NCBI GenBank assembly: GCA_020348445.1
Contig: CP070751.1
Location: forward strand, 4,070,164-4,134,163
Reading direction: 5' to 3'
From: Thermoplasmata archaeon
GTDB lineage: Archaea > Thermoplasmatota > Thermoplasmata > GCA-020350865
DNA length: 64,000 bases
The notes under the pieces were generated by a model. It saw nothing but the letters and a program-made list of their open reading frames with translations. It was not told where the DNA came from and searched no databases. Below, one piece after another: positions 10,847 through 57,626 of this stretch; position 1 is the first letter of the stretch, and each line of letters starts with the position of its first letter. Made by a program: the position numbers and the translations under genes.

Positions 10847-12700
10847 ATGGCATCACAACCTTCAGCAAAAGTTGAATCAATTTCTGAAATTGACCAGCAA
10901 ATAGTGGCCATCGAAGAGCGGAAAGCCGAAATCGAGGACCAGAAAGCTCGGTTGGATGAGGAGGAGAGAGAACTTGAAGAGATAGAAGAAGAGCTATCGA
11001 AAATGAGGAAGTTCTTCAAGAGGGTGAAAATCGGATACCGTACCTTCTTTGTAAGGAGGTTCTCGGCACCTCGAAGGATAATGACAACCAGCTCCGGGGC
11101 AGGAGGTCTAAAAGGTGATTTGGCCAAGAAGATAACACCTGTACCAAAGATCGTGGAGAAACATGTTGATGAGATAGAGATCGATACTGTTGAAGATCCA
11201 TATTCTTATGTACGAATCAGGTACGACAACCAAACCGACGAATATCTCTATGAGGTAATAGAGCCCCCGCTTTCAAAGGATGAGGAAAATGTCTTGGAGC
11301 TTCTCAAGGAAGGATTAATCGATACTGTACAACTAATCCCGGACAGAACCATTGATATCTCAGAGAAGTACCTTCGAAAAACCGTTGATGGCCTCCTACA
11401 CGGTATGGATTTGAGATTGAACCCACTGTCAAAGGAAAGGATTTTCTACTACATAAGAAGGGACTTTATGGGATATGGTCCCATCCAGACGATGATGATC
11501 GAGTACCAGGTGGAGGATATCTCATGTGATGGTGTGGGTGTACCCATCTTCATATATCATAGGAAGTACGGTTCCATCAGGTCCAATATCAAGTTCAATT
11601 CAGCTACTGAGCTTGATGGTTTCGTGGTCTGGATGGCACAGAAGTGTGGAAAGCATATAAGTGTGGCAAGTCCCATGCTGGACGCAACTGTTCCCGATGG
11701 TTCGAGATTGCAGGAAACCTTAAGCACTCATGTCACGAAGAAGGGATCCTCCTTTACCATCAGGAGGTTCAGAGAGAATCCTTTTACCTTCGTTGATTTG
11801 ATAAAATTCAAGACCATGTCCACAGAGATGGTGGTCTATCTTTGGCTGGCCATCGAGCATGGACAATCCATGCTGATTTGCGGTGGAACGGCAAGTGGAA
11901 AGACCACCACATTGAACGCGATTTTACTTTTCATTCCTCCCCAGATGAAGATCGTGACAATCGAGGATACAAGGGAGCTGAACCTACCCCATGAAAATTG
12001 GGTGCCTACATTGACTAGAAGCGGTTTTGGAGCAAAGAGCCCCATTACTGGCAAGGCACCTGGTGAGATCGACATGTTCGATTTGTTGACCATGGGTCTT
12101 AGGCAGAGACCTCAGTATCTGATGGTGGGTGAGGTGCGAGGTGCTGAGGCGTACACAGTTTTCCAGGCCATGGCCACAGGTAAAGCCTCTTATACGACAT
12201 TTCATGCAGAATCCACCCAGGCTATGGTTCACAGGATGGAGAATCCCCCAATCAATCTCCCGAGAGCGCTGATCACGGCTTTGGATTTGGTGCTTCTTCA
12301 GGCTCAGGTTAAGGTGGGCACGAAGATGACAAGAAGGGTTAAGGGTCTGACTGAGATAGTAGGTTTGGATCCCGAGACAAACGAGCTCATTACAAATACC
12401 GCCTATTCTTGGAATCCTGCAGACGATACTTTCAACTACAGTGGTCACAGCTATATTTACGAGAAGGTGCAGGCTCAAAAGAACTGGTCGCTACGGGAAG
12501 TGGAACGAGAAGTTAAGCGCAGGATCGACCTTATTGCTTACATGCAAAAGATTGGTGTTAGTAACTATATGGATGTCTCCAGGATCATCTCAGCATATTA
12601 CAAGGATCCAGAGAAGGTCGTCAAGAAAGCCAGGGATGAATTAAGAGAGGGAGCAGCAGATCCACGAATGGCTCGTAGACCTGGAAGAAAGGTAGCGTAA
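10847..12700 (+). CDS. Second type II/IV secretion ATPase (paralog of 6880..8637)
   Basis: GGTASGKTT, TIEDTRE, RQRPQYLMVGEVRG, TFHAES; N-terminal coiled coil (EERKAEIEDQKARLDEEERELEE). Confidence 0.93.
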   Translation: MASQPSAKVESISEIDQQIVAIEERKAEIEDQKARLDEEERELEEIEEELSKMRKFFKRVKIGYRTFFVRRFSAPRRIMTTSSGAGGLKGDLAKKITPVPKIVEKHVDEIEIDTVEDPYSYVRIRYDNQTDEYLYEVIEPPLSKDEENVLELLKEGLIDTVQLIPDRTIDISEKYLRKTVDGLLHGMDLRLNPLSKERIFYYIRRDFMGYGPIQTMMIEYQVEDISCDGVGVPIFIYHRKYGSIRSNIKFNSATELDGFVVWMAQKCGKHISVASPMLDATVPDGSRLQETLSTHVTKKGSSFTIRRFRENPFTFVDLIKFKTMSTEMVVYLWLAIEHGQSMLICGGTASGKTTTLNAILLFIPPQMKIVTIEDTRELNLPHENWVPTLTRSGFGAKSPITGKAPGEIDMFDLLTMGLRQRPQYLMVGEVRGAEAYTVFQAMATGKASYTTFHAESTQAMVHRMENPPINLPRALITALDLVLLQAQVKVGTKMTRRVKGLTEIVGLDPETNELITNTAYSWNPADDTFNYSGHSYIYEKVQAQKNWSLREVEREVKRRIDLIAYMQKIGVSNYMDVSRIISAYYKDPEKVVKKARDELREGAADPRMARRPGRKVA

Positions 12701-12748: not shown

Positions 12749-12772
12749 ATTAAGGGCCAATGCGTTTATTAA

Positions 12773-13216
12773 GGGGCCGCCGAGCCCTGAGGTTTAAGAA
12801 ACAATTATTTTACATTTATAACCGAAGGGCCAAGGCTAATAAGAAGATTCAATTGCCGAGCCATTAAGCTTAAGACATAATTGAATTAGAATTATAACTT
12901 AATGGCAAGGCAACTAAGAAATTTGAATTGTCGGGTCTTTCAGCTTAAGAACCGATTTTTATGTAATTATAACTGAAAGACAAGGCTATGTATAAATGGG
13001 GCCGCCGAGCCCTGAGGATTAAGACACCATTGTATTACAATTATAACCGAGGGGCCAAGGCGTATAAAATGGGGCGGTCGAGTCTTTCAGCTTAAGAACC
13101 AATTCTTATATAATTATAACTGAAAGACAAGGCTATGTATAAATGGGGCCGCCGAGCCCTGAGGATTAAGACACCATTGTATTACAATTATAACCGAGGG
13201 GCCAAGGCGGCCCCAC
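12773..13216. repeat. Tandem array of six 57-58 bp hairpin units (period 73-76 bp) abutting the tRNA-Pro 3' end
   Basis: Units start at 12779, 12855, 12930, 13004, 13077 and 13151. Consensus GYCGR-[9-nt arm]-nTTAAGA-N15-wTTATAA-[complementary arm]-(C)AAGGC. 12964-13061 is identical to 13111-13208. Confidence 0.92.
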
Positions 13217-13241
13217 GTATTAATTTAATATAAAATTTAAG

Positions 13242-13371
13242 TGGGGCCGCCGAGATTTGAACTCGGGTATCCAGCATTTCGTATCATTTTCGAAACCGAG
13301 TTATTTTCCGGGAACTCGGTACTCAACGAAACCCCAAGCTGAGAGGATTGTCCAAGCTACCCTACGGCCCC
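13242..13371 (-). tRNA. tRNA-Pro(GGG) with a 55-nt intron at 37/38 (intron 13277-13331)
   Basis: Reverse complement folds as GGGGCCG/CGGCCCC-A acceptor stem, D-loop AGCTTGGACA, anticodon stem TCAGC/GCTGG with loop TT-GGG-G|T, T-arm CCGAG-TTCAAAT-CTCGG. Relaxed bulge-helix-bulge at the intron ends. Confidence 0.9.
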
Positions 13372-57324: not shown

Positions 57325-57435
57325 GCCGAGGTAGCTAAGCCAGGCTTAAGGCGGCAGGCTCGAGCGTTTTCCTAAGGAAAACCAAGGAACCTGTTGGTGC
57401 TTTGCACCGCGGGAGTTCGAATCTCCCCCTCGGCG
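57325..57435 (+). tRNA. tRNA-Ser(CGA) with a 24-nt intron at 37/38 (57365-57388)
   Basis: GCCGAGG/CCTCGGC-G acceptor; anticodon stem GCAGG/CCTGT with loop CT-CGA-G|A; long variable arm TGGTGC-TTT-GCACCG; T-arm GGGAG-TTCGAAT-CTCCC; intron hairpin GTTTTCC/GGAAAAC with BHB-like junctions. Confidence 0.92.
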
Positions 57436-57458
57436 CTTTTAATTATTTTACAATTGTA

Positions 57459-57549
57459 GCCGAGGGTTTAAAGTGATGTTAATTTATAGGAGATTCAAGC
57501 CAGTTACCGTAAGCGAAGCGAATGGTGACGGTGGTTCGAATCTCCCCCT
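57459..57549 (+). repeat. Hairpin ending in a 16-bp duplicate of the tRNA-Ser T-arm/3' segment
   Basis: GTTCGAATCTCCCCCT at 57415-57430 and 57534-57549; stem GGAGATTCAAGCCA/TGGTTCGAATCTCC; GCCGAGGG at 57459 is the inverted copy of the tRNA 3' strand. Confidence 0.8.
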
Positions 57550-57626
57550 TTAATAAATAGATTTTATAAAATTAATACCGAAAATATTATTAGCCCGCTA
57601 ATAGATATATGTTCTGGTGATAATTG

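Follow-up and report, generated by a model that had tools for sequence, protein, structure and literature searches.

Fold-back DNA modules anchored at tRNA 3' ends in a genus of Thermoplasmata archaea: an apparently undescribed family and its possible role as folded single-strand recombination sites

Introduction

Elements that integrate at tRNA genes, and their satellites (cis-mobilizable elements and tycheposons among them), are kilobases long, and each integrase serves one or few tRNAs. The REP, BIME and REPIN palindromes are mobilised by RAYT transposases, which are Y1 HUH enzymes, and the PATEs by IS200/IS605. Sites that fold as single strands are represented by integron attC, which occurs in Archaea too (PMC9668308), and by the folded attP(+) of the CTX phage, in which two inverted copies of the target lie about 90 nt apart and the exchange of a single strand is completed by replication (PMC3089051, PMC3442271). 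Integration of CTX by one strand exchange regenerates the target, permitting tandem arrays, and the element has no integrase of its own (PMC3089051, PMC3442271).

Here we describe an array of short hairpins behind a tRNA-Pro gene, found in a 64,000-nt stretch of the genome of a Thermoplasmata archaeon (contig CP070751.1; hereafter the window). The array consists of six stacked, cargo-less copies of a genus-specific fold-back module anchored at tRNA 3' ends, and about 60 such small DNA modules make up a family that has apparently not been described before and that was found in a single genus of sediment archaea. Neither Rfam nor the literature searched describes short repeats whose arms are re-tailored to the tRNA gene that precedes them. 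New here are the statistics on strand bias, the fixed boundary of the direct copy at tRNA position 61, the history of the tRNA-Pro array among species, the insertions of cargo behind tRNA-Val and tRNA-Lys, and the model of a folded single-strand site.

Results

The array behind tRNA-Pro(GGG)

Six tandem hairpin units of 57-72 bp each were read from the + strand of the window at 12773-13216, 24 nt from the 3' end of a tRNA-Pro(GGG) gene that sits on the - strand (Table 1). Every unit is a 9-nt arm pair enclosing a 29-nt loop, which starts with nTTAAGA and ends with TTATAA; three arm alleles occur in the array, and within each allele the two arms match each other. Tandem Repeats Finder detected periods of 73-76 nt and of 147 nt, the second being 96% matched and corresponding to the re-duplication of U3-U4 as U5-U6, and the covariance model R1 recovered all six units with 62-71 bits (E 1e-12 to 1e-14). 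The direct copy of the tRNA end is perfect in U1, U4 and U6. A first-pass annotation of the window had described these hairpins, their dimensions and period, the three arm alleles with G-T wobbles and tandem G-A pairs, the tRNA-end copies, the inverted repeats at the ends of U6, the re-duplication, the distal remnant and the lack of an enzyme gene nearby, and each of these features was recovered.

The only complete module of the array has an outer stem that equals the end of tRNA-Pro, with a direct-copy arm at 13145-13156 (12-13 nt) that begins at the first base after the T-loop and an 11-nt inverted-copy arm at 13206-13216. This outer stem is missing from the other five of the six units (U1-U5), in which the inverted copy is shortened to 3 nt and 9-18 nt of filler take the place of the spacer. 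The first unit carries a perfect 12-nt copy of the tRNA end at 12773-12784, a 9-bp stem with tandem G-A pairs and the 29-nt loop; its stem type, or a similar loop, is also present in units of the congener loci L009 and L122, and U1 is the oldest unit of the array, common to two other species. The stem of U2 is perfectly Watson-Crick and its tRNA-end copy is down to 6 nt; unit 3 of L009 resembles it, with a compensatory change from A-T to T-A between the two. U4 displays a T-G wobble and tandem G-A pairs in its stem next to a perfect 12-nt copy of the tRNA end, and U5 has a stem identical to that of U3, from which it differs at 3 loop positions. The U0 remnant matches the 3' arm plus tail of U1 with a single mismatch. 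The array has been enlarged by local events, the 147-bp re-duplication among them.

The tRNA-Pro gene is intact, and its positions 61-74 are the sequence copied into the units. Plain ARAGORN misses the gene because of a 55-nt intron (13276-13330); with introns allowed, a gene is placed at the same coordinates and mis-typed. Rfam tmRNA models match the - strand at 13239-13371 and 13202-13266 below threshold, and these matches reflect the acceptor/T-arm end of the tRNA. The spacer between U6 and the tRNA is conserved in sequence among different tRNA loci and, read on the tRNA strand, includes the oligo-T tract behind the tRNA. The array is flanked by genes for a PilB-like secretion ATPase (10847-12700, + strand) and a bestrophin-like protein.

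The second tRNA of the window (57325-57435), which contains an intron and is typed by ARAGORN as Pro(CGG), is followed by another type of module (tRNA and module together, 57325-57560), in which an AT-rich spacer, an 8-nt inverted copy of the acceptor end, a 21-nt loop, an inverted T-arm-like piece and a direct T-arm copy succeed each other. The same layout was found behind two other tRNAs of the genome.

Table 1. Position of the array units, their neighbors and the subfamily lacking tRNA arms (window coordinates, except for the last two rows; G000 is the window genome)
Feature	Position	Strand	Basis
tRNA-Pro(GGG)	13241..13371	-	ARAGORN after intron removal
AT-rich spacer, 24 nt, between U6 and the tRNA	13217..13240		Compared with spacers at other loci
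U0 remnant, 3' end of an older truncated unit at the far array end	12752..12763	+	Sequence reading
U1	12773..12836	+	R1, 63.7 bits
U2, second stem allele	12855..12911	+	R1, 69.9 bits
U3, third stem allele, degenerate tRNA-end copy	12930..12986	+	R1, 67.6 bits
U4, first stem allele	12998..13061	+	R1, 62.3 bits
U5, recent duplicate of U3	13071..13134	+	R1, 70.7 bits
U6, duplicate of U4, only complete module in the array	13145..13216	+	Sequence reading, R1 match
14-copy subfamily, starts in G000	70968, 395469, 924506, 1385692, 2191871, 2621044, 2970084, 3219244, 3451784, 3486798, 3916066, 4029829, 4053244, 4552685		
14-copy subfamily, further loci	L108:1-89, L146:465-640, L155:970-1026		

Module architecture and distribution in the genome

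The window genome is a single closed contig of 5.16 Mb with 41.5% GC. The loop pattern occurs 20 times in it, against one occurrence of the reversed control, and R1, which was built from 25 units, identifies 60 copies when matches are counted at E < 0.01. More than half of them (36 of 60) lie within 450 nt 3' of 22 tRNA genes, a zone that makes up about 0.4% of the genome, and 33 of these 36 are antisense to the tRNA; in the three that are on the same strand as the tRNA the arms are normal and the core alone is flipped. Four further copies are followed by tRNA-like ends that ARAGORN does not call. The first-pass annotation had placed the origin of the units at tRNA-Pro specifically, a claim that was not supported, the same module being present behind at least 22 different tRNA genes with its arm sequences re-tailored to the local tRNA at each, and a single sequence-specific target therefore cannot explain it.

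A full module, on the strand that is antisense to the tRNA, begins with a copy of tRNA positions 61-74, followed by 2-3 unpaired purines and by the 9-bp stem with its 29-nt loop; then come 2-3 unpaired bases, the complement of the copy, the conserved 24-nt AT-rich spacer and the tRNA itself. On the tRNA strand, the distances from the end of the tRNA are constant among loci, being about 25 nt to the start of the inverted copy and 84-86 nt to that of the direct copy, which in most loci opens with the base that immediately follows the T-loop.

Another organization is represented by a subfamily of 14 of the 60 copies (Table 1), which are not beside tRNAs and have no tRNA arms while keeping the core hairpin. 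Members of this subfamily carry a second covarying hairpin after the core and then a purine-rich tail with repeated GGAGG-like motifs. The subfamily occurs in congeners too, and one metagenome contig has it in the same orientation as a 16S rRNA gene located about 130 nt upstream. Rfam searches of the window, the array and this subfamily, at gathering and at permissive thresholds, returned nothing relevant: over the array there were sub-threshold chance matches only, and in the window only the tRNA at 57325-57435 passes the gathering threshold, so that the match to a described Rfam family against which the first-pass annotation had set its interpretation was not obtained. In a separate region of the genome (G000:C1:4640570-4643566), about 25 tRNA genes are packed on one strand within 3 kb and have no modules; this cluster may be a virus or mobile-element tRNA array.

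Covariation of the stem and strand of folding

Covariation of the hairpins, proposed earlier from the six array units, was confirmed across the 25 units of the model, in which the inner stem is 93.8% paired and both sides vary at eight of the nine pairs. When the 3' partner was slid by 1-3 columns as a control, pairing of the tested structure fell from 85% to 31-40%. Wobble pairs are distributed one-sidedly: G-T outnumbers A-C in the inner stems by about 37 to 5 overall, with counts of about 20 and 3 in the window genome and of 17 and 2 in its four congeners (binomial p 7e-4). Likewise, tandem sheared G-A pairs, which one widespread allele has, are found in at least 14 units and on the antisense strand only; on the opposite strand they would become pyrimidine mismatches, and in other copies they are replaced by two Watson-Crick pairs. 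The one-sided G-T and tandem G-A pairs therefore identify the + strand, antisense to the tRNA, as the strand that folds, as the first-pass annotation had maintained. Taken together, the excess of G-T over A-C, the G-A pairs and the covariation show a bias in folding, not recombination. In terms of predicted energy for the whole array, the + strand (-139.8 kcal/mol, z -5.8 against shuffles) is only slightly ahead of the - strand (-136.3 kcal/mol, z -5.5). A putative apical helix inside the loop is only 70% paired and has little covariation. GC skew, used to orient the modules relative to replication, gave no replichore signal.

Several conventional roles and origins were also considered. Inspection by eye revealed none of the boxes, the pocket or the 3-nt bulge of C/D-box, H/ACA and K-turn RNAs. 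A role as 3'-UTR or convergent terminator was set aside on the mixed orientation of the gene beyond the modules, and an alternative 3' exon on the absence of a bulge-helix-bulge intron motif at the junctions. As for the T-loop as a source of the inner stem, 5 of 7 bases fit for the commonest allele, which is suggestive, and the Pro alleles do not fit.

Conservation in the genus and history of the array

All four other genomes of the genus contain R1 matches, with 20-41 copies each, and the model matched nothing in 56 genomes that represent 33 other genera of Thermoplasmata. Homologous units, covariation and a match in Rfam were three points on which the first-pass annotation could have been refuted, and on all three the outcome favors a real feature. 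Among viral contigs the pattern of one allele matched 5 times and that of another never, and none of the 5 matches the R1 model; metagenome contigs gave no match for the common allele and two for the G-A allele, both belonging to the non-tRNA subfamily. Between the window genome and a closed congener (G001), orthologous cores are 71-90% identical, locus-specific loop bases included, and the segment formed by inverted copy, spacer and tRNA end is 57-93% identical, while the 75 nt beyond the module are 45-60% identical against a random expectation of 52 +/- 7%. The module of tRNA-Pro(UGG) differs between the same two genomes by several compensatory changes.

The comparison of tRNA-Pro flanks, which the first-pass annotation had called for together with the search for homologous units, gave a number of units that varies between species in the interval between the PilB and tRNA-Pro genes: 6 in the window genome, 3+1 in L009/L121 and 2 in L122. 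The order in L009/L121 is three full-length units with a 97-nt period, an extra intron-less tRNA-Pro and one more unit. The unit farthest from the tRNA is of the same type in all three species, and those adjoining the tRNA are lineage-specific, which suggests that units are added or turned over on the tRNA side of the array. L009 also contains a hybrid unit, one arm of which is Pro-type and the other Trp-type; it is either the product of recombination between modules or an assembly chimera. Adjoining it, at L009:5300-5560, is an intron-containing tRNA-Pro whose T-stem/acceptor 3' end is tRNA-Trp-like and cannot pair with its own 5' end.

Enzymes and insertions at other tRNA genes

The link to casposons and Cas1 put forward in the first-pass annotation was not sustained by a genome-wide search for enzymes. 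No match to Cas1 (PF01867) was obtained along the whole 5.16-Mb contig, with the same search being positive in 7 of 14 control genomes, and no reverse transcriptase was matched in the closed genome; the casposon reading therefore fails. Tyrosine recombinases (PF00589) are represented genome-wide by two short fragments. These C-terminal pieces adjoin tRNA-Leu and tRNA-Met (G000:C1:1864225-1864380 and 2412539-2412649), a pattern expected of an integrase gene split on integration or of decayed elements. For serine recombinases the genome gave only one match, a large serine recombinase that lies about 60 kb from the array (L151:1483-3085). Its gene appears to be split into two overlapping ORFs, one of 309 aa with Resolvase and Recombinase domains and one of 234 aa with a Recombinase domain. 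The IS200-type transposase Y1_Tnp has five matches in the genome, none with an R1 match near it, and in the two identical copies examined the end hairpins are short and unrelated to the modules. No integrase is present in or near the tRNA-Pro array, and CRESS-type Rep (PF02407) has no match in the genome, nor in the control genomes.

Gene-sized insertions were observed behind two other tRNAs. At tRNA-Val (L152:1-4501; G000 1266000-1270500), a 3.8-kb segment with genes for a MacB/FtsX-type permease and an ABC ATPase separates the tRNA from a module; the module at its far end has a 16-17-nt direct copy of the tRNA end, and the segment is framed by direct repeats of at least 100 bp of the tRNA downstream flank and contains no integrase. 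Behind tRNA-Lys (L153:1-2901; G000 2798100-2801000), a 2.4-kb insert with an AbiEi/AbiEii pair, of the abortive-infection and toxin-antitoxin kind, is bounded by an about 20-nt direct copy of the tRNA-Lys 3' end, likewise with no integrase. The 3' ends of tRNAs are active insertion points in the window genome.

Discussion

Direct observations comprise the architecture of the modules, their strand bias, covariation and conservation, the differences in copy number and the gene insertions bounded by tRNA ends. In order to account for them, we tentatively favor the possibility, at somewhat less than even probability, that the modules are folded single-strand recombination sites like the attC of integrons or the attP(+) of the CTX phage. 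Here we infer recombination as the process, a single-stranded intermediate and an enzyme. When the antisense strand becomes single-stranded, pairing of the two tRNA-end copies would restore a short duplex with the sequence of the tRNA gene end, and a structure-directed recombinase acting in trans could carry out strand exchange between this stem and the gene. In this way a module, in some cases together with cargo, would come to lie immediately behind the tRNA, which stays intact, and older modules would be left farther out. Later events would have produced the present array: the copying of U3-U4 to U5-U6, small deletions that shortened the inverted copy and the spacer, and drift of the stems by compensatory changes.

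A circle with the order copy, core, complement and spacer, crossing over inside the copy with the tRNA antisense strand, would give exactly the observed order and leave the tRNA intact. In addition, a pairing bias towards one strand is the hallmark of sites acting as folded single strands, the comparisons within the genome and between orthologues indicate that the hairpin is maintained by compensation, the number and type of units at tRNA-Pro vary between species, and the Pro/Trp hybrid unit of L009 points to exchange between modules. Nevertheless, none of the PF00589 fragments, the split serine recombinase and the Y1 transposases can be assigned as the recombinase, and with 22 or more different stem sequences the enzyme would have to recognize structure and not sequence. 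The tRNA-Pro array carries no cargo, a free element of about 100 nt would be very small, and viral contigs gave no real match. Moreover, the conservation of module, loop and spacer far above that of the flanks fits a host function at least equally well, and the 14-copy subfamily retains the core hairpin without any tRNA arms.

The main rival, which we hold somewhat less probable, is that the modules code for small, structured RNAs made from the + strand and hence antisense to the tRNA. Such an RNA could form a long hairpin in which the outer stem mimics the acceptor/T-stem end of the neighboring tRNA and the conserved loop binds a protein, and it could be excised by tRNA-processing enzymes or pair with the 3' end of its own tRNA. 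The folded strand is the + strand and its stem covaries, and cores that are 71-90% identical next to flanks at the random level of 0.52 suggest purifying selection. The well-conserved 14-copy core subfamily away from tRNAs speaks for RNA as well, and its member downstream of the 16S rRNA gene is probably transcribed in that orientation there. At single-unit loci inspected by eye, however, no consistent TATA-like element lies at the right distance upstream (AT-rich stretches are present, but their distance is not constant) and no oligo-T tract follows the units on the + strand; neighboring genes occur in either orientation and no Rfam family matches. The tRNA-mimicking outer stem, central to such an RNA, is gone from five of the six array units, and the constant arrangement of inverted plus direct tRNA ends, the hybrid unit and the cargo insertions are left unexplained. 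With respect to the first-pass annotation, which had offered either sequential insertion of tiny elements or a non-coding RNA, both sequential insertion and a structured RNA are still live, the casposon form of the former being unsupported.

It seems improbable that the modules are a passive by-product of template switching or fold-back repair at heavily transcribed tRNA genes, followed by slippage and unequal crossing-over, with no function and no dedicated enzyme. The order direct-inverted-direct is indeed an outcome of tandem inversion duplications, the 147-bp re-duplication and the shortened junctions are ordinary products of slippage, and about three quarters of the non-cluster tRNA genes are followed by some copy of their own end, with more than one type of module involved. 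Against this, the 29-nt loop and the 24-nt spacer are common to modules behind unrelated tRNAs, the offsets of the inverted and direct copies are constant, and neither the bias of wobbles to one strand nor the compensatory upkeep of the stem and its cross-species conservation amid randomised flanks is expected of neutral debris. Finally, insertion of mini-elements at the tRNA-Pro 3' end by a casposase or Cas1-type integrase, with target duplication giving a CRISPR-like proto-array, can be practically discounted: the direct 12-13-nt tRNA-end copies between units and the apparent growth of the array at its tRNA-adjoining end would suit it, but the single-contig genome has no Cas1 match, the same type of module stands at no fewer than 22 different tRNAs, and the inserted pieces are mutually homologous, not diverse, with an inverted copy left unexplained.

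If the modules are folded recombination sites, one enzyme could target many genomic sites via the copy of the target held in the hairpin, which would explain how cargo such as transporter or abortive-infection genes gathers behind tRNA genes without integrases. A bolder proposal, which we hold unlikely, is that they are the sites of an undescribed, homology-checked insertion system that uses tRNA ends as integron-like landing pads in an archaeal lineage; a hairpin stem that copies its target would let one structure-reading enzyme place DNA behind any tRNA gene undamaged. If, on the other hand, the modules are RNAs, they would constitute a family of acceptor-stem mimics paired one-to-one with tRNAs. 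Either reading bears on how archaeal tRNA genes acquire duplicated ends, chimeric ends and possibly introns.

Comparison with known systems

Casposons need a Cas1-family integrase, whereas the window genome has none (PF01867), and a casposon is a multi-kb element with terminal inverted repeats and one preferred target that is duplicated over about 14-15 bp, in contrast to units of 57-100 bp at 22 or more tRNAs. A CRISPR array has near-identical repeats, unrelated spacers and cas genes; here the cores are homologous, the tRNA end plus hairpin is what repeats, and Cas1 is missing. The REP-type palindromes resemble the modules in being short, abundant, non-coding, strand-biased imperfect hairpins that are sometimes clustered. 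However, unlike the modules, REPs have no tie to tRNA ends and hold no copy of their flank; a cognate Y1 transposase with matching flanking hairpins, which marks REP/RAYT systems, was not found among the Y1 copies examined in the window genome.

With tRNA-integrating elements the modules share the direct tRNA-3' repeats that bound the insert, the pile-up behind one tRNA and the intact tRNA. A direct repeat of the 3' portion of the tRNA, as in an att site, is present in the form of 12-13-nt copies from position 61 beside an undamaged gene, but the integrase expected in the element or the genome is represented by integrase fragments and one split serine recombinase only. Moreover, tRNA-integrating elements have neither an inverted copy nor a fold-back core, and the modules have both.

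Integron attC sites are built along similar lines. Both are imperfect palindromes of 60-140 nt in which an unpaired spacer separates an outer from an inner stem that ends in a variable loop; structure is kept over sequence in either case, one strand is favored for folding, tandem arrays grow beside a fixed site, and cassettes may be empty or carry genes. As in attC, a folded single strand with one strand favored and structure prevailing over sequence is what the modules display, in so far as this refers to a bias in folding only. They differ from attC in lacking the R''/R' core sites (RYYYAAC ... GTTRRRY), with outer stems that are instead tRNA positions 61-74 and locus-specific, and in having no IntI tyrosine recombinase beside the array and, in the tRNA-Pro array, no ORFs between sites; the fixed partner would be the end of the tRNA gene rather than attI. 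In comparison with CTX-type elements, neither a single-stranded replicon nor an Xer-type enzyme was identified in the window genome, and the target is dif for CTX and many different tRNA gene ends for a module of about 100 nt. Nevertheless, in both CTX attP(+) and the modules the target is present as two inverted copies with tens of bases looped out between them, and in single-stranded DNA these copies fold into a stem that mimics the duplex target.
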